Translations under genes and position numbers: made by a program | The notes under the pieces: generated by a model | Told to the model about the DNA's origin: nothing | Databases searched by the model: none | Seen by the model: the letters and a program-made list of their open reading frames with translations, nothing else | Source of the DNA: Candidatus Goldiibacteriota bacterium | GTDB lineage: Bacteria; Oederibacteriota; PGYV01; DSYL01 | Length of the DNA: 64,000 bases | NCBI GenBank assembly: GCA_018000835.1 | Contig: JAGNJD010000001.1 | Span: forward strand, 5,275 to 69,274 | Direction: 5' to 3' | Shown here: positions 3,966 through 52,014 of the stretch, piece after piece | Layout: each line of letters starts with the position of its first letter | How positions within the stretch are numbered: position 1 is the first letter of the stretch

Positions 3966-5657
3966 TTATAAAATTTTTGCCATTCTTGACACGCCCATCA
4001 AAAACCCGCCGCAGTGCGTTATCCAGTCCTCGTCATGCAATGCATCAGGCGAATCAAATTCTTTTTCCGGTGGGACGTCATATTCAAACTGGCGTCCGGT
4101 TCCAAAACCATTGCATATTGAACCGCGGACATTTGTCCAGTTACCTGCACATCTGCTGCCAACTCCCTGAATCATGCTGACGGATAATGCAACGTCATCA
4201 GAAACGTCGGCATCAAAAACCACGCAACCCAGTTTTATGTTGTCTCTCGTCATACCTGCATTTAAACCGCATATCCACTGTAAATTTGATTGTGCAATGT
4301 CAATGAACTCCTCATCGTCAAATAATTCATAAAATTCGCAGGCCAGGGCTGCTGCCTGGCCATAAATGGCATTTGTCCCATGCCACGTGCCTGCAAACCA
4401 TAAAATTCCCTCGTCTCCAAACGTGCCGCGCGGTAAAATTTTAAACGGGGATGCAAGGCAGACAGGTTTAAAATAGTTATATGCAAAATTTTTTATCGAT
4501 TCTTTCCATTTATCTACGTATTTATGTTCCGGTATCCTTTTCATTGCCTCAATAAAACAAAATACGGGATGTGCAAACACTGAACCCATGTCAGAACCAA
4601 AACGGGTATTTTGTCCGGCAGCCGGCATTCCATGGCTCCATGCTTTTTCTGTTACGTCAATCCCATCGTAAGCGTAAAAATGTCCATATAATCCATTTTC
4701 TGCCTTTTCAGGGGACACCTGCCGTTTTAAAATGCTCTCAGTCAAAAAATCAATCCTGTCCGAACGCCTGCGCTTGCCGATGGAAAAAAGAATGATTTCA
4801 CTCCATAAAGCAAGCATCAGATAACGCGTCATCCATTGTTCCGGATATTTTACACCTTCTTTCCATCCCTGGTTAAACGAAACGTTGTTATCGACAAGCG
4901 GCCTTGCTTCTTTTTCAATCCAGTCAAGGGATTTTGCAGCACGTAATGCAAATTCATCTGACTTTTTTTTATCCGTATTTTTTAATGTGTCTGCGGCTTT
5001 TGCCCATGATAGCGCTGCCATAAAAGAATCGTAAGGCGAACAACTGTCCGGTGCCCTTGCCATATCATGTATCAATGCACCGTTCCCGAATCCCTTTTCT
5101 GCTGCTTTATCCTGACACATCCCAAGATAAATGCAACCGTCATTTATAAACGACAAAACTGCTTTTTTATCTTCTGGTTCCAGTAAATCTCCTGTGAAAT
5201 CACATAAATCACACAAGCCCGCAATCATAACAGAATGACTTGGGACCTCCTGCCATAAACTGCCTGCATCAAACCAGCCGGGTTTGACGCCTGCAAATAT
5301 TGCCCTTCTTTTCAGATTTTCAGGACCTATGTATCTGACCGTTTTTTCAAATAAAACGTTTTTCCCAATCGTAAGTCCGCCATCTTCCAGAAGCAATTTG
5401 TTTTTGTCGTATAGTTTAATCTTATACGTTCCTGTCTCTTTAAATTCCGTAAAATCCGCGCCCCACCAGTATATCCCCCAGAATCTTCCCCGGTATTTTG
5501 TTTTACTTTTATATTTTACTTTTCCATCTGCGTCCGTAATGACAATTTCTGCATCATCAGACAGCCAGTTTTCCGGCCCTCTTATAAAAGTTCTTTTCTT
5601 TTGTTTTAAATCGTAACCGACCTGTGAAAACAAAATTCCTTTCTGGTTTCTTTGCAT
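3966..5657 (-). CDS. Glycoside hydrolase, GH9-like (N-terminal Ig-like domain plus six-hairpin catalytic domain)
   Basis: 563 aa. The N-terminus (SQVGYDLKQKK...ITDADGKVKY...WGADFTEFKETGTYKIKL) resembles the cellulase N-terminal Ig-like domain. KPGWFDAGS resembles the GH9 GGWYDAGD motif. The call rests on motifs only. Confidence 0.45.
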   Translation of the reverse strand: MQRNQKGILFSQVGYDLKQKKRTFIRGPENWLSDDAEIVITDADGKVKYKSKTKYRGRFWGIYWWGADFTEFKETGTYKIKLYDKNKLLLEDGGLTIGKNVLFEKTVRYIGPENLKRRAIFAGVKPGWFDAGSLWQEVPSHSVMIAGLCDLCDFTGDLLEPEDKKAVLSFINDGCIYLGMCQDKAAEKGFGNGALIHDMARAPDSCSPYDSFMAALSWAKAADTLKNTDKKKSDEFALRAAKSLDWIEKEARPLVDNNVSFNQGWKEGVKYPEQWMTRYLMLALWSEIILFSIGKRRRSDRIDFLTESILKRQVSPEKAENGLYGHFYAYDGIDVTEKAWSHGMPAAGQNTRFGSDMGSVFAHPVFCFIEAMKRIPEHKYVDKWKESIKNFAYNYFKPVCLASPFKILPRGTFGDEGILWFAGTWHGTNAIYGQAAALACEFYELFDDEEFIDIAQSNLQWICGLNAGMTRDNIKLGCVVFDADVSDDVALSVSMIQGVGSRCAGNWTNVRGSICNGFGTGRQFEYDVPPEKEFDSPDALHDEDWITHCGGFLMGVSRMAKIL

Positions 5658-7368
5658 GCAAACTCCTTTTTAGCATCATTTTAAATTTTTCAAACTTATC
5701 ATTGTCGCCTGTAAAATCAATTACGTATAAAATGTTTTCATTTTTGTTGTTTTTTATTATTTTATCCGAAATTTTTTCAATCTCAACGTAATTATCCAGG
5801 ACGTTTTCTGATAAAATACAAACTCTTCCTTTAACGTAATCATCCATTATCCTGTCATCCGGTTTTGAAAAACAAACGAAATCCCTGCCTTTCAGATAAA
5901 AATCCTTTAATCCGCCACGTGAGAATGAATATGATTCATTTCCCACGTAACATATTGCACTATCTTTGATTGATTGCGCGGTTCTTATTACGTATGCCTG
6001 CTGTGTAAAATTCATTTTTTTCGGCATGGCACCATAAAAGACAAACGCGTCCGAAGCAATAATCAGGAGAGAGATGACGATGACGCCATAACGCATTCTG
6101 ATCTTTTCAAGCAAATAACAAAAACCCACTCCTGCGATTGTAGCAAAAACCGGCGTTAAAAACATGACCCTCGTATTTGACGGATATTTATATGGTCCCA
6201 GAGCACCAAGGGCAGCAGCAAAAAAAACGTAGGTAATTAAAATAAATCTGCATCTCCAGTCGTCCTTTAAATTTTTAATTAATAAAAATATGCCGATAAG
6301 AACTCCGAATAGTCCCACGTATCCGGTTAGCGGGCCATAAACAAAATGAGTTGTTGATTCGTTGTATGCAAATATGATTAATGATTTAAAGAAATTCAGA
6401 ATAATGTATAAAAATCTTTCGTTTTCATCAGGATTAAAATCATAAAATTTCTGATATCCGATAAGAGTTCTTTCAAAAATGTTTTGCAGGAAATTCCCGT
6501 TAAGCAACAAAAAAATCGTAGTGAGCAGGAACGTAACGAAAATCAACATGAATTTTTTGCTTAAATCGCCGTTTCTGGGTCTTAAAAAACAATAAACAGG
6601 AACGACAAAAATGAGTATCCTTGATGCATGAAAAGTATAAAATCCGAGTCCAAGGAACAATCCACATAGATACGAAAAAAGATGCGAATTTTTTTCAATC
6701 GCAAGTTCACAAAAAAGCAAAACGCAGCAATAAAACAGGATTGAATGGACGTTGTTATATCCGATATGGCTAAATGCAAGCATCGGCGCGGCAAAAACAA
6801 AAGCAGACAAAGAAACAATTGCGACTTTTTTATTGAATACGATTTTATTCCATAAATAAAAAGGAAAGATGGATAACGGGATTATTATGGCAGAACTTAA
6901 TTTCCATCCAAAAAATAAGTCACGGGTTAAAAACATAAAAAACGCCTGCCACAAAGAAGACATAACCGGGAAATTATAAACTCCTTTTTCCGAGAATAAA
7001 TCCGGCTTTTCATATCCGTCAATTATTTTCCTCGCAAATTCCAGGAAATGATATTCATCCCCTATCAGTGCATATTTCCACGATTTGTAATCAAGCATGA
7101 TTAAAATAAGGAAAAAAACCGACAACGACGCAAGACAAAAAATTTCTTTTCCGGTTAAGATAAAATTTAGTTCGTATTTTATTCCCTTGTTTTTATCAAG
7201 ATTATAAAAACATACGAAAAATAAAATTATGACGATTAAGAAAAGTGCAATCTGGAGAAAATAAAATTTATGCAGTAAATGCAATAAAAACAAAATAAAA
7301 TACAAAAAAAAAGAAATAAAAAATAAGGTTTTTTTTGGTATTTTATCCTGCCTGACAATTGATTCCAT
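5557..7368 (-). CDS. Polytopic membrane glycosyltransferase, GT39/ArnT-like (PMT family)
   Basis: 603 aa with many predicted TM helices over the first ~450 aa and a soluble C-terminal domain. The architecture fits the ArnT/PMT family. It overlaps the downstream gene by ~100 nt, so one start is probably miscalled. Confidence 0.5.
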   Translation of the reverse strand: MESIVRQDKIPKKTLFFISFFLYFILFLLHLLHKFYFLQIALFLIVIILFFVCFYNLDKNKGIKYELNFILTGKEIFCLASLSVFFLILIMLDYKSWKYALIGDEYHFLEFARKIIDGYEKPDLFSEKGVYNFPVMSSLWQAFFMFLTRDLFFGWKLSSAIIIPLSIFPFYLWNKIVFNKKVAIVSLSAFVFAAPMLAFSHIGYNNVHSILFYCCVLLFCELAIEKNSHLFSYLCGLFLGLGFYTFHASRILIFVVPVYCFLRPRNGDLSKKFMLIFVTFLLTTIFLLLNGNFLQNIFERTLIGYQKFYDFNPDENERFLYIILNFFKSLIIFAYNESTTHFVYGPLTGYVGLFGVLIGIFLLIKNLKDDWRCRFILITYVFFAAALGALGPYKYPSNTRVMFLTPVFATIAGVGFCYLLEKIRMRYGVIVISLLIIASDAFVFYGAMPKKMNFTQQAYVIRTAQSIKDSAICYVGNESYSFSRGGLKDFYLKGRDFVCFSKPDDRIMDDYVKGRVCILSENVLDNYVEIEKISDKIIKNNKNENILYVIDFTGDNDKFEKFKMMLKRSLHAKKPERNFVFTGRLRFKTKEKNFYKRAGKLAV

Positions 7369-7858: not shown

Positions 7859-8934
7859 CTGCTTTGTGTCGTCGTCTGTTGTGGTGCCCTGTATAAGTTA
7901 TATCCTGCTTTTTCCCATTGCTGCAATCCTTCAATAAATATTAAAATTTTTTTATATCCTTCCTTATACAGCATGTTTGCAGCCTGCTTTGCTTTACCGC
8001 CGCGTCCGTGACAATAAATTACGCTGGGTTTTTGTTTTAAAAAATAATCGTAACCGCGTATCATGTCTTTTAATTTGTCAACCGGGATTGTAACCGCCCT
8101 GTCGATGTGTATCTTGTTATAGTTTTCCTGCGTATCAACGTCAATGAAATTTGCAAGCCCGCTATCGTATAAAAATTTTGCTTCTTCCAGTGTTATCTGC
8201 TTTATTTCTTTTTCAGAAGGCGCTTCCATAAATAAGGATTTAAATTGCTCCGGCGGCTCGTATTTTTCAACCGGCATGTTTGCCTGCGTCCATTCCGGCC
8301 ATCCGCCAAAGTAAATTACGATCTTTTTATATCCTGCATCAAACAAAGCATAAGCAACCTTATCTGACAGGTGACATCCTGCACCATGACAATATGGAAC
8401 AAGAACCTTATCCTGCAAAATGTCTTTGTATTGCGGAATCTTATTCTGCACGTCTCCAACCGGCATGCTTAATGCGCCCGGTATATGTCCATCGTTATAT
8501 TCGCCGGTGCTTCTGGCATCTATAAATACCGCCTTACCGCTTTCAAACAAAACTTTTGCTTCCTCAAGATGTATTTTTGGAAAATCTTCCTTTTTCTTTC
8601 TTTCGTCAAATAAATATTTATATTTTAAAGGAATATGATAAACTTTCGTCGGAACCGGAGCAGGTGCCTGTAACTGCTGCCCTTCCAAAACAGACGTTAT
8701 GGTATTTGAAACAACGTCCGCAGTCGTTGATGCTGCAGCCGGTTGTCCTGCTTCTTTATCTGCTCCTACCGACGCTCTTATACCCGTATATGAAAGTGCC
8801 GTGACTGTCGCAACTACCAAAACCACGACTGCTTTTAAAACAACGTTATACGCCTCTTTTAAAAAACCTGATTCTTTTACCTGTTTTTTTACAATCTTTT
8901 TTGTAACCTTATTTGCTTTTTTCTTTCTTACCAT
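7855..8934 (-). CDS. Tandem rhodanese-domain sulfurtransferase, membrane-anchored
   Basis: Two rhodanese active-site loops, CHGAGCHLS and CHGRGGKAKQ, and an N-terminal TM anchor. It is adjacent to the MauE/DoxX gene. Confidence 0.7.
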   Translation of the reverse strand: MVRKKKANKVTKKIVKKQVKESGFLKEAYNVVLKAVVVLVVATVTALSYTGIRASVGADKEAGQPAAASTTADVVSNTITSVLEGQQLQAPAPVPTKVYHIPLKYKYLFDERKKKEDFPKIHLEEAKVLFESGKAVFIDARSTGEYNDGHIPGALSMPVGDVQNKIPQYKDILQDKVLVPYCHGAGCHLSDKVAYALFDAGYKKIVIYFGGWPEWTQANMPVEKYEPPEQFKSLFMEAPSEKEIKQITLEEAKFLYDSGLANFIDVDTQENYNKIHIDRAVTIPVDKLKDMIRGYDYFLKQKPSVIYCHGRGGKAKQAANMLYKEGYKKILIFIEGLQQWEKAGYNLYRAPQQTTTQSR

Positions 8935-9170: not shown

Positions 9171-9548
9171 TCATTCAAAATATTCTGCAAAACTCCCGGA
9201 ATCCATCGTCTTTATCCCGTTTGCAGATGCAAAATCCTTAAGTTTCCTGTCGGAAGTAATAAGTAGCGTGTTTTTTGCCTTTGTTTTTATATTTTTAATC
9301 ATATCAATGATAACGTCGTCGGCAGTCTGCTTACCTGCTGAATAAACAATTTTAATGTCACCTGTTTTTTCCATTGATTTATGTTCTGAAACGTTCGTGT
9401 ATCCATCAAAAATAATGATAATATTTCCGTGATTTACATTATAAAACTGTTGAAGTTCATTTATCAGGTTTTCTCTTTTTTTCTGCGAACTGTCACCTTT
9501 TAATTTCATGCAATACATCAGATTATAACCGTCAATTATTATATTCAT
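9171..9548 (-). CDS. NYN-domain (YacP-like) protein
   Basis: 125 aa with MNIIIDGYNLMY...IIFDGY...TADDVI...ITSDR motifs characteristic of YacP/NYN nuclease-like proteins. Confidence 0.55.
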   Translation of the reverse strand: MNIIIDGYNLMYCMKLKGDSSQKKRENLINELQQFYNVNHGNIIIIFDGYTNVSEHKSMEKTGDIKIVYSAGKQTADDVIIDMIKNIKTKAKNTLLITSDRKLKDFASANGIKTMDSGSFAEYFE

Positions 9549-10417
9549 TTTCTTGCTCTTGGATGTGCTTTATCATATTCTTTTTTTAATTTTTGTATTG
9601 AAAGATGTGTGTATATCTGCGTCGTGGACAAATTACTATGCCCAAGAAGTTCCTGGACGGAGCGTAAATCCGCGCCCCTGTCCAGAAGATGCGTTGCAAA
9701 GGAATGCCTCAGGGTATGCGGGGTTACCTTTTTTTTTATGTCGGCCATTTTTGCGTATTTTTTTATCATAAGTTCAACAAATCTCTGGGTTAATCTTTTT
9801 TTATTCCTGTTTATAAACAGCACCCCTGACGAATCTATCTTTTTAAGTTCTTTTAAATAACAGTGAAGAATATTTAAAGCAACGGTGCCGGCAGGCACTA
9901 TTCTTTCTTTCCCCCCTTTACCAAGAACTTTTATTTCTTCATTTACGAAATCAACGGCAGAAACGTTTAAGTTAACGAGTTCACTCACCCTTATCCCCGT
10001 TGAATAAATCAGTTCAAGTATAGTTCTGTCACGGAGAGAAATAAAATCTTTACCTGTTGCGGCTGACAATAAACTTTCCGTTTCTTTTTCTGTTAATACG
10101 CCCGGTAGCCGTTTTTCTGCCTTTGGAGTTAAAATGTATGAAAACGGATTTTTCTCTATCCTTTTTGTTTTTATTAAAAATTTATAAAAATTTCTTACTG
10201 CAACTATTTTACGTGCTATTGAATTTCTGCCGTATTTTTTTTTGCCGAGAAACTGAAGAAATCTTTTTATGTCGTCTTCCGTAACGTCAATTTTTTTATC
10301 GTTAAAATTTACAAATTGCTCTATGTCTTTTATGTAATTTTTTACGGTATTATTGGAGTAATTTTTTTCATAAGTAAGATATTTTTCGTAATCGCGGATT
10401 TCATTTATTTCATTCAT
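9545..10417 (-). CDS. xerC: Tyrosine recombinase XerC/XerD
   Basis: C-terminal HTLRHSFATHLL...LGHSNLSTTQIYTH with the catalytic Tyr. The track ORF extends to 10618, but the likely start is MNEINEI at ~10417, just after the topA stop. Whether it is xerC or xerD cannot be decided. Confidence 0.85.
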   Translation of the reverse strand: MNEINEIRDYEKYLTYEKNYSNNTVKNYIKDIEQFVNFNDKKIDVTEDDIKRFLQFLGKKKYGRNSIARKIVAVRNFYKFLIKTKRIEKNPFSYILTPKAEKRLPGVLTEKETESLLSAATGKDFISLRDRTILELIYSTGIRVSELVNLNVSAVDFVNEEIKVLGKGGKERIVPAGTVALNILHCYLKELKKIDSSGVLFINRNKKRLTQRFVELMIKKYAKMADIKKKVTPHTLRHSFATHLLDRGADLRSVQELLGHSNLSTTQIYTHLSIQKLKKEYDKAHPRARK

Positions 10418-12719
10418 TATCGTTTTCTTTTTCTTCCCTGTAATCACATTTTTTGCAATAAATCGTGGTTTTGCTTTTTGTAACTTTTTCCAGTAAAAAA
10501 TCAGCCCCGCATTTAGGGCATTTAACCGGCACGGGTTTATCCCATACCATAAACTTACATTTTGGATAATTTGAACAGCCGTAAAACTTTCTGTATCTTT
10601 TAAACGTCCTTTCCACAATTTTACCGGTCCCGCAATCGGGACAATTTATCCCTATCTCAACGAGTATCTGCCTGGTATATTTACACTGGGGATATTTACT
10701 GCACGCAATAAACGTGCCGTAAGGCCCCATTTTTTTAATCAATTCGTCTCCACATTCAGGACATTTTTCGCCTATTTTTTCGTCAAATGCAGGTCCGCCG
10801 TTTAATGGTTTTGCGTTCTTGCATTCCGGATATCTTTCACATGACAAAAATTTACCAAATCTTCCCCATTTTACTATCATCTTTGCACCGCATTTTTCAC
10901 ATACCTGTCCGGTATCTTCCTGGATGTTGTTCTTTAAATCGGTCATGTGGGATTCTGCGTTTTTTAACATTTGTTCAAATGAATCGTAAAATTCCTTTAA
11001 AAAATTATGCCATTCAACTTTTCCCTCCTCTATGTCATCAAGTGAATCCTCCATCTTTGCAGTATATTCTTCGTTTATCAAATCAGGAAAGGATTTAATA
11101 AGAACGTCGTTTACGACAAATCCGAGTTCAGTCGGAATAAATCCTCTTTTTTCTCTTGTTATGTATTTTCTCTCCAGAAGCGTTGCAATAATAGGTGCGT
11201 ATGTGGATGGTCTTCCTATGTCTTTTTCCTCCAGTGCCTTTACAAGCGTTGCGTCGTTATAAAGGGGCGGCGGTTGCGTAAATTTCTGCTCGCTTGATAC
11301 GTCAATCATGTCCAGTTTATCTCCCTGAAAAACGTCGGGTAATTGCTGGTTTTCCTCTGCGTCTTCTTTTTCATTGCCATTATCAGTAGATTCGTTGTCA
11401 GTGGGTTTGTTAATTTCAGAATAAATTTCATAAACCCGCAAAAATCCGTCAAACTTTAAAACGGAACCTGTAGCAGAAAGCATATATGGACCCGCAGATA
11501 CCTTTATTTTTGTATCGTCAAATACTGCAGGAGTCATCTGGGATGCAACAAACCTTTTCCATATTAATGAATATAATTTATACTGGTCGTTATCAAGGCT
11601 GTCTTTTATCTTTTCCGGAGTCCTGAAAGCGGAAGTCGGTCTTATTGCTTCATGGGCATCCTGGGCTGATTTTTTTGACTTATAAAAATTAGGCCGTTCA
11701 GGCGCATATCGTTCCCCGTAATTCTGCCTGATATATTTTAGTACTTCCGTTTGTGCTTCATTTGAAACGCGTAAAGAATCTGTTCTCATATACGTAATCA
11801 AACCGACCTGGCCTTCACCCTTTACGTTTATGCCTTCATAAAGCTGCTGGGCTATCTTCATCGTTTTTAATGCCGTAAAATGCAATTTCCTTGCTGCATC
11901 CTGCTGAAGCGTGGACGTTATAAACGGCGGCAGAGGCCTTCTTTTTCTTTCTTTTTTTATTACTTCCGAAACAACGTAACTCTGGTTTCTTAAATCATTT
12001 ACGACGGTTTCTGCTTCCTGCCGGTTTTTTATTTCAACTTTGTTTCCATCCTTTTCTATCAGTTTTACCTTGAATTTTTCCTGTTTCTGCGTCTGCAAAA
12101 TTACAAAAACGTTCCAGTATTCAACCGGTTTAAAAGCATCTATTTCTCTCTGACGTTCAACTATTAATTTGAGCGCAACCGACTGGACGCGGCCCGCAGA
12201 TAGTCCTTTTCTTATTGCCTTCCATAAAAGCGGACTTATTTTATATCCAACCAGCCGGTCAAGAATCCTCCTTGCCTGCTGTGAGTTGACAAGATTTACG
12301 TTTATCTGTCCCGGATTGGAAAGACCGTTTAAAACCGCGGTCTGTGTTATTTCATTGAATAAAACCCTGTGAAATTTTTTCTGCCCTATGTTTTTCGTTT
12401 TTCCGATTTCTTCCGCAATGTGCCAGCAGATTGCCTCTCCTTCCCTGTCCGGGTCTGCTGCCAGATAAACTTCGTCAACTTTTTTAATCGCCTTTTTTAA
12501 TTCTGACAGGGTTTTCATCTTATCCCGTAAAACTATATACGTCGGTTCAAAATTATTGGCAACATCAACTCCCAGTTTTGATTTTGGCAAATCAATTATG
12601 TGTCCCTTTGTTGCCATAACTTCATATTTATTGTCCACAAATTTTTTTATCGTTTTTACCTTTGTCGGGGATTCCACCAGTATTAATTTTTTACCGCTGT
12701 GTTCCTTTGTTTTTGCCAC
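10410..12719 (-). CDS. topA: DNA topoisomerase I
   Basis: 769 aa with a Toprim N-terminus, the conserved topo IA core (TYMRTDS), and C-terminal CxxC zinc-ribbon repeats. GTG start. Confidence 0.95.
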   Translation of the reverse strand: MAKTKEHSGKKLILVESPTKVKTIKKFVDNKYEVMATKGHIIDLPKSKLGVDVANNFEPTYIVLRDKMKTLSELKKAIKKVDEVYLAADPDREGEAICWHIAEEIGKTKNIGQKKFHRVLFNEITQTAVLNGLSNPGQINVNLVNSQQARRILDRLVGYKISPLLWKAIRKGLSAGRVQSVALKLIVERQREIDAFKPVEYWNVFVILQTQKQEKFKVKLIEKDGNKVEIKNRQEAETVVNDLRNQSYVVSEVIKKERKRRPLPPFITSTLQQDAARKLHFTALKTMKIAQQLYEGINVKGEGQVGLITYMRTDSLRVSNEAQTEVLKYIRQNYGERYAPERPNFYKSKKSAQDAHEAIRPTSAFRTPEKIKDSLDNDQYKLYSLIWKRFVASQMTPAVFDDTKIKVSAGPYMLSATGSVLKFDGFLRVYEIYSEINKPTDNESTDNGNEKEDAEENQQLPDVFQGDKLDMIDVSSEQKFTQPPPLYNDATLVKALEEKDIGRPSTYAPIIATLLERKYITREKRGFIPTELGFVVNDVLIKSFPDLINEEYTAKMEDSLDDIEEGKVEWHNFLKEFYDSFEQMLKNAESHMTDLKNNIQEDTGQVCEKCGAKMIVKWGRFGKFLSCERYPECKNAKPLNGGPAFDEKIGEKCPECGDELIKKMGPYGTFIACSKYPQCKYTRQILVEIGINCPDCGTGKIVERTFKRYRKFYGCSNYPKCKFMVWDKPVPVKCPKCGADFLLEKVTKSKTTIYCKKCDYREEKENDNE

Positions 12720-27416: not shown

Positions 27417-28553
27417 TTATTTTATTTTTTTATAAACGTAGTAAAAATATCTTACTCCATGACTGTCAATAACGTCCATGGGGATCTGAAGAAAACCGGT
27501 TTTATAAAATTTTTTATTGCCAAAATTCTGATGAAAAATAACACTGCAGATTATGTCATCTTTTTCAGATTTTGCAAACGACATAAGTCGTGCCGTCGTC
27601 GTAATCGTATTGCCATATACGTTTAATGATTTTTGTCCTGCTATATTTACTTCTGCCAGTAAATCCATGCCATTATTTACCGCCGTTCTTGCGTTCCATT
27701 GAGGAATTCGTTTTTTTACATTTTCAACGTTTGCTTTTTTCATTTCCATCAAAAATTTCAAGGCGAACTGAAAATTAATGTCCTGTTCTTCCCTGTTCCC
27801 CAAAAAACACAAATATGCACCATCACCCAGCAGAATAAGTATGTAATCTTTATAATTTAAAAGTAGTTTATTTAATATTGAATTAAACTGCGGTATCCAG
27901 TAATCCCGTTGCGTTTCAAGGTCCGTTTCAGTGGATGCCCTGATATCAATGCCAAGGCAGGAATTAAAATGCTCTTTACCCGTTTCAAGAACCTTTGAAA
28001 AATTCAATGGAATAAAAACATTGCTTACTTTGTTTTTTGACGTCTCTTCTTCCCCGGATAGAATCCTGACTTTGTATTTAAATCCTTCGTAATATTCTGA
28101 ATCTCCGGGAAAAGTAAAACCATCGTATTTATAAAATGCGGCCTGTGCATCAATGCCCGCTTGTTTTATCCATTTTTCCATGATATTTCTGTCTGCTTTT
28201 ACGGTTATTACAAAAAATATGGTATCTTCCGGCCTTATTTCCTCACCCGCGCCGTAAGACAATAATTTGTATTCACCGCCTCTTTTTATAAACGTGCCGG
28301 CAAAAGAATCCGGTTTCTGGATTTTCGTCGTTTGTTTAAAAACATTTTCAGGAGGCAAACCGTCAAAAATACGCCATGCATTTTTTTCCCATTTAATGTA
28401 TGCCTGAATGCGTGAAAGGATCGATTTTTCGTCGGGACATAACTTTACGTCAAGCCCCTCAAAATCCCGTCCTATAAGATAGGTCTTATTTTTATCCTTT
28501 AATTCAATTATTTCCTTTTTGCCGCAAACGCCGCAGCAAAATTCAAGTATCAT
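27417..28553 (-). CDS. Zn-ribbon plus FHA domain plus class-III nucleotidyl-cyclase-like domain protein
   Basis: 378 aa. N-terminal CCGVCGK zinc ribbon. FHA-like YLIGRD...LDVKL...ILSRIQAYIKWE...WRIFDG. The C-terminal CLGIDIRAS / ILLGDGAY / ARTAVNNGM...VYGNTITTTARLMS block parallels the cyclase homology domain motifs FxDIxGFT / KTIGDAYM / RIGIHTG...GDTVNTASRMES. Confidence 0.5.
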   Translation of the reverse strand: MILEFCCGVCGKKEIIELKDKNKTYLIGRDFEGLDVKLCPDEKSILSRIQAYIKWEKNAWRIFDGLPPENVFKQTTKIQKPDSFAGTFIKRGGEYKLLSYGAGEEIRPEDTIFFVITVKADRNIMEKWIKQAGIDAQAAFYKYDGFTFPGDSEYYEGFKYKVRILSGEEETSKNKVSNVFIPLNFSKVLETGKEHFNSCLGIDIRASTETDLETQRDYWIPQFNSILNKLLLNYKDYILILLGDGAYLCFLGNREEQDINFQFALKFLMEMKKANVENVKKRIPQWNARTAVNNGMDLLAEVNIAGQKSLNVYGNTITTTARLMSFAKSEKDDIICSVIFHQNFGNKKFYKTGFLQIPMDVIDSHGVRYFYYVYKKIK

Positions 28554-48387: not shown

Positions 48388-48455
48388 GGCAAATTGCAGG
48401 TTTTATCGAATCACTCCACAAACTTCGCATGCTTTTCTTGTAACAAACCTCCTTA
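48388..48455 (+). repeat. Solo IS30-family terminal-repeat-like sequence (copy A)
   Basis: GCAAATTGCAGGTTTTATCGAATCACTCCACAAACTTCGCATGCTTTTCTTGTAACAAACCTCCTTAG. Approximately 75% identical to the IS right end at 49563-49637 and to the copy at 51835-51905. Confidence 0.6.
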
Positions 48456-48666
48456 GCCCGCTCCGCTATACAAAAAAACCTTCGGCTTATCCGCCGAATG
48501 GCTTTAGCGCAGCAAATGGCGGAAAAGCCGAGACGATTTACAGAACTTAATATCCGAGATGAACCAATATTCAGCCAACAAAGAATGCTTATATACATAC
48601 GACACATTTAAAAGTATCACAATATTTAACAATACGTCATAAGACATTACAATCTATTTCATAAAT

Positions 48667-49500
48667 TTAAAGTAAATCTCTTCTCTTAATTAATAAATCT
48701 TTTACAGTGAACTTCGTTTCTTTCAAAAGCCAACGAAAGAAACTTTTACTTAATTTAAGTATCGTAGAATTATGATATCTTATCAGCCAGTTCGTTTTAG
48801 TTCTTATTTTAAAATCCTTTTTATTCTTCTTATAGTTGTTAACTATTACTTCTTTGTGCCTCAAAACAAAAGACAAATATTCTTCAACATCGTCGCATTC
48901 ATCTGCAATAGCCCTTAAATAATCTATAAAATATAAGCCATCTGCATCCTTTCGTATATTATTCTTTATATCACTCATTTCCATCTTTAAGTTGTGCTCT
49001 CGTTTTTTAAATAAGTCAGATGCACTTCTTAAAAACTTGAATATTTCTGGGTCAATTACTATTCGTGGAAACTTCGCAATTTGGCTTTCAAATTTATATG
49101 CTCTATTAAACCCTGGACCAAATACGTTCTTCTTTTCATAATAGAGTTCATCTATGACAACAGCACCACGAATAAAAATGTCATTCGCCACCATATTTGT
49201 TTGTAGATGAACCAAATCAAGTAATTCAAAAAATAGAATTCCCTGGGGATACTTAATATTACTTCTGCTTAAAACATTTCTAACCCTTATTGCCATATCA
49301 GAAAACTTAAAAAAATATGGTTCTCCTCTGCGAAAAGGACGTTGGTCTTCATTGTAATATTCAAAAATTTTAAGTTTTTCTAAAATTACATTTGGGTCTG
49401 TTTCATTTTCCATAACTTTTTTAAACCCTAAAATATCCAGAAAAGTAATAATGCACGTTTTATATTTGTGCTTTCGTTTTTTTGACATTTTTCCTCCCAA
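48667..49500 (-). CDS. Hypothetical protein with class-III nucleotidyl-cyclase-like N-terminal motifs, inside an IS-flanked islet
   Basis: 277 aa. CIITFLDILGFKK / FKFSDMAIRV / IRGAVVIDE...FGPGFNRAYKFES parallel the cyclase homology domain motifs. The C-terminal 140 aa are helical and unassigned. Flanked by IS30-end copies A and B. Confidence 0.35.
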   Translation of the reverse strand: MGGKMSKKRKHKYKTCIITFLDILGFKKVMENETDPNVILEKLKIFEYYNEDQRPFRRGEPYFFKFSDMAIRVRNVLSRSNIKYPQGILFFELLDLVHLQTNMVANDIFIRGAVVIDELYYEKKNVFGPGFNRAYKFESQIAKFPRIVIDPEIFKFLRSASDLFKKREHNLKMEMSDIKNNIRKDADGLYFIDYLRAIADECDDVEEYLSFVLRHKEVIVNNYKKNKKDFKIRTKTNWLIRYHNSTILKLSKSFFRWLLKETKFTVKDLLIKRRDLL

Positions 49501-49654
49501 TAAGAATATATATTATTATATCTCTCGTAGTAAGTATTTTAAAGTATTATGAAATTTTTAGAATTGCACGGCAACTTACAAGTTTTATTGCAACACTCCC
49601 AAAACTTCACATGCTTTTTTTGTAACAAACTTCCTTGTAATATTGTTGAATGTC

Positions 49655-49978
<324 letters not shown>

Positions 49979-50097
49979 CTATTTGTTGCAATTCATTTTA
50001 CAATGTTTAACCCGTATCAAAAAGCCGGCTTGATTCTTCATAATCTGTCATAAGCAACCCGCCTGTTGAGATTACGGAAGCATTTTATCCGTATTTT

Positions 50098-50310
50098 CTA
50101 TCGCGTCGCAATCAGGAACCTGACAGAGCCGTCCTTTTCTTTGACTGGAAAAAACAGTATGGACGGTATTTTCTCGCGCTTTTTATGTTCCTCGCTGCCC
50201 GCCCGTAAAAGCACCAGCCCGTCGGCGCCTGGTATCTCCGCGACATCGCCTTTCATCGAGGTTTTCATCGTTTCTATCTTCATTTCCAGTCCTTTTGCTA
50301 ATTTGATCAT
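50098..50310 (-). CDS. Small ORF (70 aa) in a GC-rich insert inside the IS remnant; function unknown
   Basis: Preceded by AGGGAG. Composition is markedly more GC-rich than its surroundings. May be spurious. Confidence 0.2.
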   Translation of the reverse strand: MIKLAKGLEMKIETMKTSMKGDVAEIPGADGLVLLRAGSEEHKKREKIPSILFFPVKEKDGSVRFLIATR

Positions 50311-50932
50311 TTTATACGCTCCCTCAGTAATATCCGGCTATAATCTTGATAATCAAAATCGGACCCTAATAATGCTGCAAAGACTGCAATTTTTATCCGG
50401 AATTGTATATTAATTTTTAATGATATTTTTCTTTTAATTCAGGCTTTGATTCAACCATTTTTACGTCTGCCATTCCCAGGAAGTCGGATAATTTCAACGA
50501 TTCCTGCTTTTCCATATTAATTTCCATCGTGTGTTCGTCATATTTTGTTTCAGCTTTAGGCCCGTTCCTCTCAATATAACTCTGAATAGTTATCTATGGT
50601 AACCTCCCAGAAAATCCTGTTTGCCGTATTCCGTTTCACTATTAATTTAAGTGTTGCCATAGAAACTCCTTTTCCAATGACGTTATAAGAAGTAGCAATT
50701 ACATTCACTTATATCTTGTTTTTATATCATTGAAACTTTAACAAAAACCTATTTGCGGTATGAATATTTTCCGCATTAGTCTGTTTCTATACGGAAATAA
50801 CTCTAACCTTCTTCTTCTGCAACTTCTACTGCGTATGAAAAATTCTTTATACAGGCCTTTAAAATACTCACCATCCCGTCTGATATAATATTCGTAATCA
50901 GAAAAAAATCCAAAAGCCCCTTCTTTACGTAA

Positions 50933-51139
50933 CTATCCTTGCAAGCAGTTTTTCCTTATATAACTTGCGCTTATTGCGCTTTCTTTTACTTGCGTTCCGT
51001 TTTGCCCGTTTATGTGCTTTTCCTGCCCTGTAAGTGTACTGATTGCTGCTCCCCTCCCTTTGCGTATTTCTCGGCTTATGGCGCTTTTATGCCGTCCCAA
51101 TAAGTCTGCTATCTTGCTTATTTTCAAACCGGCTGCCAA
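50933..51139 (-). pseudogene. IS30-family transposase N-terminal HTH fragment
   Basis: GLKISKIADLLGRHKSAISREIRKG is the typical IS30 N-terminal HTH. The frame terminates after 68 aa. Confidence 0.6.
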
Positions 51140-51282: not shown

Positions 51283-51534
51283 CTATTTTTTCACAAATAC
51301 AAGCATGTTAAAAAATATTTTTACATCTGCGTTTGTACCCATAAGCATTGCAATAAGACCGGCAATACAACCGGATTTTTTTGTAACTGCTATTTCTTCT
51401 AATGAGACAAATTCCCAACCGTCTTTTGCTTCCTGATTGATTGCGTCCGCAAAACTGCGTACCGCCGAATCAAAATTACCATCTTTGTCTATAACAATAT
51501 TTTTTGGTGCCGGAACACATTTGTATTGTGCCAT
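51283..51534 (-). CDS. DUF4177-like small protein (hypothetical)
   Basis: 83 aa. MAQYKCVP...DGWEFVS resembles DUF4177. The assignment is weak. Confidence 0.35.
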   Translation of the reverse strand: MAQYKCVPAPKNIVIDKDGNFDSAVRSFADAINQEAKDGWEFVSLEEIAVTKKSGCIAGLIAMLMGTNADVKIFFNMLVFVKK

Positions 51535-51549
51535 TTTTTCTCCTTATTT

Positions 51550-51741
51550 TTATGGATAATCTATGCCGCCATTGGGGGCATGGCATCTAAAAATTCTCGC
51601 AACTCCTTTTATTACACCTTTCATTAACCCATACTTCTCAACTGCAAGCATCATGTAATCCGAACAAGTCGGTTCAAATCTACACGACTGCCTTAATTCT
51701 TTTGGAGCATGTTTCTGATACAATCTAATAAAGAAAAACAA
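51550..51741 (-). CDS. yidD: Membrane protein insertion efficiency factor YidD-like
   Basis: CRFEPTCSDYM...RIFRCHAPNGGIDYP matches the YidD signature. Confidence 0.7.
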   Translation of the reverse strand: MFFFIRLYQKHAPKELRQSCRFEPTCSDYMMLAVEKYGLMKGVIKGVARIFRCHAPNGGIDYP

Positions 51742-51834: not shown

Positions 51835-51960
51835 GCAAATTGCAAGTTTTATTGCACCACACCAAAAATTTCACATGTTTTTTTTGTAAGAAATTGACTT
51901 GTTACTCTCGGATAACTGTTTATCCAGTTTTGAATGTCTTTTACTGCCGTCTCTGTGATT
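51835..51960 (+). repeat. Solo IS30-family right-end remnant (copy C) with ~60 bp of IS interior
   Basis: AATTGCAAGTTTTATTGCACCACACCAAAAATTTCACATGTTTTTTTTGTAAGAAATTGACTTG followed by ...CTGTTTATCCAGTTTTGAATGTCTTTTACT. This parallels the sequence internal to the 49563 end. Confidence 0.6.
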
Positions 51961-52014
51961 CCGCGTATAGCCTTCCCTCGTTATCGTGCCTGGATTTCTG
52001 CCCATATAAGGTTT

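Follow-up and report, generated by a model that had tools for sequence, protein, structure and literature searches.

We analysed a gene on the minus strand of a 64,000-nucleotide (nt) stretch of a Candidatus Goldiibacteriota genome (NCBI GenBank assembly GCA_018000835.1, contig JAGNJD010000001.1, positions 5,275 to 69,274 of the forward strand), hereafter called the window; coordinates count from its first letter. The gene encodes a protein predicted to contain a class III nucleotidyl-cyclase fold, and an earlier note on this DNA had taken it for mobile cargo of an IS30-flanked islet, possibly a Pycsar-like or abortive-infection enzyme. Our analysis places the protein in a very large, patchily distributed family that includes one experimentally validated toxin, PanT of a Burkholderia phage, and we lean towards reading it as an effector of growth arrest that acts without a dedicated partner gene.

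The gene and its setting among IS30 fragments

The features of the gene, with residues of the cyclase domain given in the numbering of the longer, 277-amino acid (aa) product, are as follows.

48667..49488 (-): gene for the cyclase-fold protein, which has 273 aa when translation begins at ATG 49488; in the mechanical open reading frame (ORF), extended to TTG 49500, it has 277 aa
48910..49467 (-): palm-type domain of class III cyclase homology, spanning residues ~12-197 and marked by D22 (FLDILGF), S67-D68, R111-G112, FGPG (G128), E138, P145-R146 and, in a hairpin, D187-G188..D193-Y194
48670..48909 (-): helical extension at the C-terminus, covering residues ~198-277, in which H215, K235, W238 and Y242-H243-N244 are conserved across the family
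49493..49497 (-): GGAGG resembling a Shine-Dalgarno sequence, separated by 4 nt from the downstream ATG 49488, read from the sequence
49515..49543 (-): weak sigma-70-like promoter match, TTTAAA-17-TATAAT, 10/12
48471..48498 (-): intrinsic-terminator-like hairpin and T-run, 3' of the gene

The ORF from TTG described in the earlier note (48667..49500, minus strand, 277 aa) is present and intact, and the four motifs singled out there (CIITFLDILGF, FKFSDMAIRV, IRGAVVIDE and FGPGFNRAYKFES) are all found in its translation. The start codon is likely ATG 49488 rather than TTG 49500, since a GGAGG lies upstream of the ATG and the 273-aa product is a 100% match to a deposited hypothetical protein from a Candidatus Goldbacteria metagenome-assembled genome (MAG; P0001). 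The closest relative after that protein has 40% identity. Promoter-like matches in the region are no commoner than in shuffled sequence.

The gene lies among the following remains of IS30-family insertion sequences (IS).

48389..48456 (-): IS30-family 3'-end fragment (i), a solo copy of a 68-nt transposase-tail/end repeat
49571..51139 (-): degraded IS30-family copy (ii), consisting of the end repeat 49571-49638 and transposase pieces
49585-49734 (-): in-frame IS30 transposase tail of copy (ii)
49655-49960 (-): IS30 DDE-region fragment of copy (ii), frameshifted
50936-51139 (-): HTH_38 fragment of copy (ii)
51835..51969 (-): IS30-family 3'-end fragment (iii), ~135 nt, with repeat families D1 and D2

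The IS-end repeats reported on either side of the gene are real, and a third copy had gone unmentioned (51835-51902). The three copies (the others at 48389-48456 and 49571-49638) are 81-84% identical and share one orientation, and the 23-nt core of the repeat has 3 matches against 0.00 expected. The repeat derives from an IS30-family element, of whose transposase gene it represents the 3' coding end. The DDE-region fragment at 49655-49960 reaches at most 59% identity to annotated IS30 transposases (E=4e-10) before the frame is lost. Between fragments (ii) and (iii) lie an intact DUF4177 gene (51283-51534) and an intact yidD (51550-51741), and the whole patch is bounded by rpsB and a ThiD2-family gene. 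Three decayed IS30 copies in one orientation thus lie within 3.6 kb, a pattern that suggests recurrent IS30 insertion at a single hotspot upstream of rpsB.

The GC content of the gene is 27-31% compared with 35-40% in its flanks. On account of this low GC content and its embedding in decayed IS30 copies, we take the gene to be foreign DNA stranded upstream of rpsB. The idea of IS30-flanked mobile cargo is only partly borne out. Two complete copies with intact ends are not present; the gene has a 68-nt end fragment to one side and a broken, frameshifted copy to the other, both decayed and in direct orientation, and these remains do not support present-day mobility as a composite transposon. Elsewhere in the window, a tyrosine recombinase (9545-10618, minus strand; Phage_integrase plus a SAM-like N-terminal domain) adjoins topA and dprA and looks XerC/D-like rather than phage-derived.

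Cyclase fold and active site

Profile and structure comparisons were made from a 72-member family alignment. Its profile matched the catalytic domain of Rv1625c in the PDB (1yk9; E=8.9e-6, profile positions 7-174), and an AlphaFold2 model built from it had a predicted local distance difference test score (pLDDT) of 93 and a predicted template modelling score of 0.90. When the model was searched against the PDB with Foldseek, the top 50 hits were all catalytic domains of adenylate or guanylate cyclases (AC/GC), at probability 1.00 and E~1e-5 over 165-223 columns. The N-terminal ~185 aa are thus predicted, by both the model and the profile, to adopt the class III nucleotidyl-cyclase fold, which bears out that part of the earlier note. 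The cyclase part is longer than the ~135 aa assigned to it there, as the alignment lengths and a beta-hairpin at 182-192 in the model, which we take to be the last hairpin of a class III domain, place its end near residue 197.

Standard domain models barely register this likeness. In Pfam, the only match of the window protein was a sub-threshold one to Guanylate_cyc (PF00211), which scored 12.7 bits where 21.9 are required and covered residues 11-44 only; weak PF00211 matches at E<=1 were obtained for 7 of the 72 aligned members, the best at E=3e-4. Scans of the window protein against NCBIfam and PADLOC returned no family, and a search of the structures in BFVD returned no full-length structural relative, the matches being giant-virus cyclase domains only. 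The window also holds a cyclase with an FHA-like region (27417-28553, minus strand; 378 aa), in which an N-terminal Cys-rich/FHA-like region is followed by a C-terminal Guanylate_cyc match above the Pfam threshold (22.5 bits, E=9.5e-5, residues 223-331). We considered whether the islet protein could be a paralogue of this cyclase and rejected it (BLASTP E=2.6, hhalign probability 0.1%); the series of motifs that the two were said to have in common does not reflect a specific relation.

A set of 302 family members was used to score residue conservation. The metal-binding D22 is found in 97% of them, the S67-D68 hairpin with the second metal-binding Asp in 99%, R111-G112 (the beta4 Arg and its neighbour) in 99% and 98%, respectively, and E138 of the 'ES' helix in 98%. 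Both Asp positions correspond to those of class III enzymes in the alignment of hidden Markov models (HMM), D22 being aligned to the FADIVGF of Rv1625c and D68 lying at most 2 residues from the Asp of the GD motif. Other residues are specific to the family and nearly as constant: P145-R146 (98% and 99%), K235 (97%), W238 (95%), and D193, Y194 and Y242 (90% each).

The remainder of the canonical site is not conserved. Neither the transition-state Asn nor the Arg of the GDxVNxAxRxES box is a family feature: position 132, which corresponds to the Asn, is V in 41%, I in 34% and N in 16% of the members, and position 136, which corresponds to the Arg, is E in 42%, D in 15% and K in 8%. The earlier note had argued that the protein keeps the Asn and the basic residue of this box; N132 and K136 are peculiar to the window protein, and their resemblance to the box is coincidental. 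The base-specifying (purine-specifying) positions are likewise not conserved in the family. By these alignments, the family retains the metal- and phosphate-binding half of the site but not the canonical half for cyclisation and base selection. The lack of conserved transition-state and base-specifying residues means that the reaction is not necessarily canonical 3',5'-cyclic nucleoside monophosphate (cNMP) synthesis.

The D-D-R-R core is complete at 82 of 94 loci. The window protein itself keeps every near-invariant residue (D22, S67, D68, Q100, R111, G112, G128, E138, P145, R146, D193, Y194, H215, K235, W238 and Y242-N244) and departs from the consensus at position 117, where it has D and 91% of the family has G. 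In one 475-aa member (P0080), two family modules are fused in tandem. S67, D68 and R111 have been lost from the N-terminal module, which keeps D22, E138, P145-R146 and D193-Y194, whereas the C-terminal module is complete. This single example resembles the C1/C2 pseudo-heterodimers and, by analogy, hints at a dimer with composite sites.

The C-terminal ~140 aa had been proposed as a possible fused effector or regulatory module. About 50 of these residues are part of the cyclase domain. The other ~80 contain no recognisable effector and are predicted to be soluble helices with no resemblance to transmembrane (TM) or Toll/interleukin-1 receptor (TIR) modules. Modelled alone, residues 150-277 had a pLDDT of 91 and matched nothing in the PDB better than a Foldseek E of 1.4, nor any PDB sequence profile, although this is a weak negative because the cut falls inside the cyclase domain. 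The signature formed by D193-Y194 and K235-W238-Y242-N244 is present in 236 of 304 sampled members.

Compared with class III AC/GC domains (PF00211; Rv1625c, soluble guanylate cyclase, mammalian AC C1/C2), the family therefore has the same fold, Asp pair, beta4 Arg and 'ES' helix, and it may also act as a dimer, as the degenerate C1/C2-like fusion hints. It differs in falling below the Pfam gathering score, in its unconserved transition-state and purine-specifying residues, in a shorter beta4-beta5 arm, in the additional invariant R146 and in the helical C-terminal extension, as well as in lacking sensor domains and in being distributed on mobile elements.

Distribution of the family and its relation to PanT

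An exhaustive profile search retrieved 16,567, 11,196 and 3,845 representatives of 50%-identity clusters at E<=1e-3, 1e-10 and 1e-30, respectively, most of them single-module proteins of 250-300 aa. The window protein matched phrog_23933 of PHROGs v4 (E=1.5e-28, positions 2-221 of 240), as did all six of the other homologues scanned, two of them metagenomic members and four from viral contigs. This is the same family, listed there as being of unknown function, but the family reaches far beyond phages. Its genes occur on 61 IMG/VR viral contigs, in P2-like Burkholderia phages and on 92 plasmids (Bacillus, Acinetobacter, rhizobia, Agrobacterium), and the species representatives that carry it are scattered over many phyla, with one MAG of an Asgard archaeon among them. 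In that Promethearchaeota MAG, a contig (L149) carries a partial relative at 2497-2964 (E=4e-6, residues 8-155), which could reflect either transfer into archaea or contamination of the bin.

The immediate surroundings were examined as well. In a Pirellulales prophage the family gene lies beside terminase and portal genes; another copy shares an island with UvrD-PDDEXK and SACS/NOV_C, a further one has GmrSD, IS elements and recombinases as neighbours, and others lie on a Tn7-like element with PIN-TPR-GreABC and in a region resembling an integrative and conjugative element (ICE). Batch scans of the flanks at phage loci identified terminases, integrases, methyltransferases, repressors, ParA and holins, and at chromosomal loci type I restriction-modification (R-M) genes, GmrSD, GajB-like helicases, Hma, DrmD, BrxH, phospholipase effectors and resolvases together with housekeeping genes. 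The homologues are thus overwhelmingly carried by mobile elements or placed in variable regions rich in defence genes, and not in conserved housekeeping contexts, which would have counted against the idea of the earlier note. At three loci the gene is broken up into two or three neighbouring, frameshifted fragments on the same strand (L089, 7998-8795; L112, 7980-8803; L127, 8004-9121). As read from their sequences these are pseudogenes, indicating frequent decay of the family gene.

No constant partner accompanies the family. The four neighbours on either side were clustered for 43 and then 103 dereplicated loci, and no family was present in more than 5 of the 103 or at a fixed position. Among the ORFs of at least 40 aa tightly coupled to the family gene, 83 of 92 were singletons, and the only recurring ones were ParA-like genes and type I R-M subunits. 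At three unrelated loci (L033, L129 and L138), the family gene is tightly coupled to hsdM/hsdS-like type I R-M subunit genes, inside the R-M operon. Beside the window gene there is no credible small ORF, Rfam element (one sub-threshold chance match) or tandem array; an RNA antitoxin or other RNA element was sought by the Rfam and tandem-array searches near the gene and none was found. A 47-aa AT-rich ORF (48504-48647, minus strand) begins 19 nt past the stop codon of the gene; none of the coupled ORFs at other family loci is homologous to it, and it is probably spurious rather than a small partner.

One family member has been studied experimentally. The protein gp8 of Burkholderia prophage phi52237 (YP_293707.1) is the PanT(Bur. 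phage) of Kurata et al. (PNAS 2022; PMC8832971), a validated toxin that is toxic in E. coli and was described as a 'putative nucleotide cyclase', with HHpred likeness to adenylate/guanylate cyclases. Its inhibition is strongest on transcription, weaker on translation and weakest on replication. It leaves ATP unchanged while slightly lowering GTP, and it induces RelA-dependent ppGpp as a secondary effect; the antitoxin PanA (Panacea/DUF4065) binds and neutralises it, making the two a type II toxin-antitoxin (TA) pair (PMC8832971). In the prophage, gp8 is situated in a variable region between the integrase and portal genes, 3 nt downstream of the DUF4065 gene. We found that gp8 matches the family HMM with 116 bits (E=5e-38, positions 5-251) and has a median identity of 23% to the family. 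Its similarity to the window protein is detected by BLASTP at E=2e-9, with 21% identity over 264 aa and 17% over aligned match columns.

Both gp8 and the window protein possess D22, D68, R111, R146, K235 and N244. These residues are kept throughout the small PanA-paired branch (gp8, L065 and the second copy in L078), which lacks D193-Y194, W238 and Y242-H243; the window protein has them, as do the 236 sampled members that carry the full signature. A further difference is the partner gene. PanA lies upstream of gp8, whereas nothing of the kind accompanies the window gene, and all but 3 of 144 loci lack it as well. A jackhmmer search for DUF4065 that covered 149 loci gave matches only at L064/L065 and next to the second family gene of L078, and none in the window; DUF4065 partners are confined to the small gp8-like branch. 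The Paraburkholderia sediminicola locus L078 carries two family members ~1.3 kb apart (5657-6634, minus strand, and 7983-8807, plus strand), one of them gp8-like and paired with PanA (DUF4065) and the other a solo gene with the K-W-Y-N signature. We also asked, by a crude test, whether this C-terminal signature replaces a partner acting in trans; a coupled upstream ORF was equally frequent with and without it (Fisher p=0.64), and the idea was dropped.

Possible functions of the window gene

The analysis shows the fold, the near-invariance of D22, D68 and R111 together with R146, K235 and W238, and the distribution on mobile genetic elements and in defence islands; it also shows that no partner is conserved and that the protein is homologous to PanT. 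With modest confidence, we favour the view that the window gene encodes a solo, mobile-element cyclase-fold enzyme that uses nucleoside triphosphates (NTP) and two metal ions and serves as a growth-arrest/abortive-infection or addiction-type effector. An NTP would be bound at the two-metal site, probably in a head-to-tail dimer, and a nucleotide-derived product or modification would lead to growth arrest, perhaps as in the tested relative gp8 mainly through shutdown of transcription without ATP depletion. Arrest of the cell would in turn serve the carrier element, either as abortive infection or exclusion or as an addiction-type function. Low expression, auto-inhibition or a requirement for a trigger are candidate restraints on such a solo form. 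The 'abortive-infection cargo' of the earlier note is in this respect plausible, as a member of the same family, gp8, is an experimentally validated toxin.

Several observations weigh against this view. Toxicity within the family has been demonstrated for gp8 alone, and gp8 is distant (21% identity) and without D193-Y194, W238 and Y242-H243, so its toxicity may not transfer to the window protein. No enzymatic product is on record for any family member. An antitoxin or partner is found neither here nor as a conserved feature elsewhere, a difficulty if the enzyme is constitutively toxic, and the test of the C-terminal signature as a substitute for a partner in trans lent no help. The association with defence islands is a qualitative judgement with no background control, and a gene lying amid IS debris could be silent.

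The Pycsar-like reading of the earlier note would make the protein a pyrimidine (or, as in Pucsar, purine) cyclase whose effector is unlinked, lost or fused C-terminally. Pycsar is a two-gene system in which PycC has a class III-like core with two catalytic Asp (PMC11224242), and the window protein is similar in that core, in both Asp and in its location in mobile, defence-associated DNA. However, the PADLOC-DB PycC models matched it with 0 families at E<=10, and its 40 PDB profile hits and 50 best Foldseek hits include no PycC chain, its nearest PDB relatives being canonical AC/GC domains. The check suggested in that note, whether homologues are followed by TM or TIR effector genes, came out negative: no gene for a cNMP-binding TM or TIR effector (PycTM or PycTIR) adjoins the window gene, and neither these nor a cyclic nucleotide-binding domain protein nor any other gene is conserved beside the family gene in the 103 dereplicated loci. 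The soluble helices of the C-terminal ~80 aa do not supply such an effector, and the argument from the Asn and the basic residue fails as described above. With neither a conserved partner nor a PycC model match, the two-gene Pycsar architecture is excluded, and we consider a Pycsar or Pucsar cyclase in any of the variant forms very unlikely. An ordinary cellular signalling cyclase producing cAMP or cGMP is extremely improbable. The fold and the metal-binding residues would suit one, but the sub-threshold Pfam score, the unconserved transition-state and base-specifying positions, the missing sensory or regulatory domains, the patchy spread linked to mobile elements, the low GC content and the IS flanks would not.

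Two other explanations are unlikely to a lesser degree. A phage or mobile-element enzyme for counter-defence or host manipulation, which makes or consumes a nucleotide signal to act against host immunity or physiology, would fit the frequent accessory positions in phage genomes and the conserved NTP-type active site, and we rate it as unlikely, given that the family also occurs on plasmids, on Tn7- and ICE-like elements, in islands beside R-M and GmrSD genes and inside type I R-M operons, locations typical of defence or addiction cargo, and given that its sole tested member acts as a TA toxin. That the gene is a silent or non-functional relic, unexpressed or catalytically dead, among decaying IS30 copies seems slightly less likely again. 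All IS30 copies around it are indeed fragments, its next-best relative is only 40% identical, family genes have become pseudogenes at L089, L112 and L127, and the protein has D at position 117. Against this, the ORF is full length with all near-invariant residues and is accompanied by Shine-Dalgarno-, promoter- and terminator-like signals.

The favoured reading as a solo effector can be extended to the 236 of 304 sampled members that carry the C-terminal signature. Such a clade might constitute a self-contained, single-protein abortive-infection system that is triggered by phage, in which the C-terminal module inhibits or senses and a non-canonical nucleotide product or modification shuts off transcription; this more specific proposal is speculative, and we regard it as a doubtful but not negligible prospect. 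Among recent defence-discovery papers and follow-ups on cyclases and TA systems, PanT(Bur. phage) was the only system found to match the family, and our literature search found no follow-up on the mechanism of gp8. A cyclase-like TA toxin is known from one distant example, while the solo clade, with its own C-terminal signature and enormous spread, is undescribed and unannotated.

For annotation, the lesson of this locus is that the Pycsar label is attractive but wrong, and that the 'retention' of motifs in one sequence can mislead. The family is among the larger protein families that have no Pfam, NCBIfam or PADLOC model, and it extends over phages, plasmids, transposons and many phyla. It raises the questions of how a cyclase-fold toxin may be controlled in cis and what nucleotide chemistry a class III fold carries out when the canonical Asn and Arg are missing. 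If the proposal of a single-protein system were true, the solo clade would add a new enzymatic branch to the cyclase superfamily and bring with it a new mechanism of defence in thousands of lineages.

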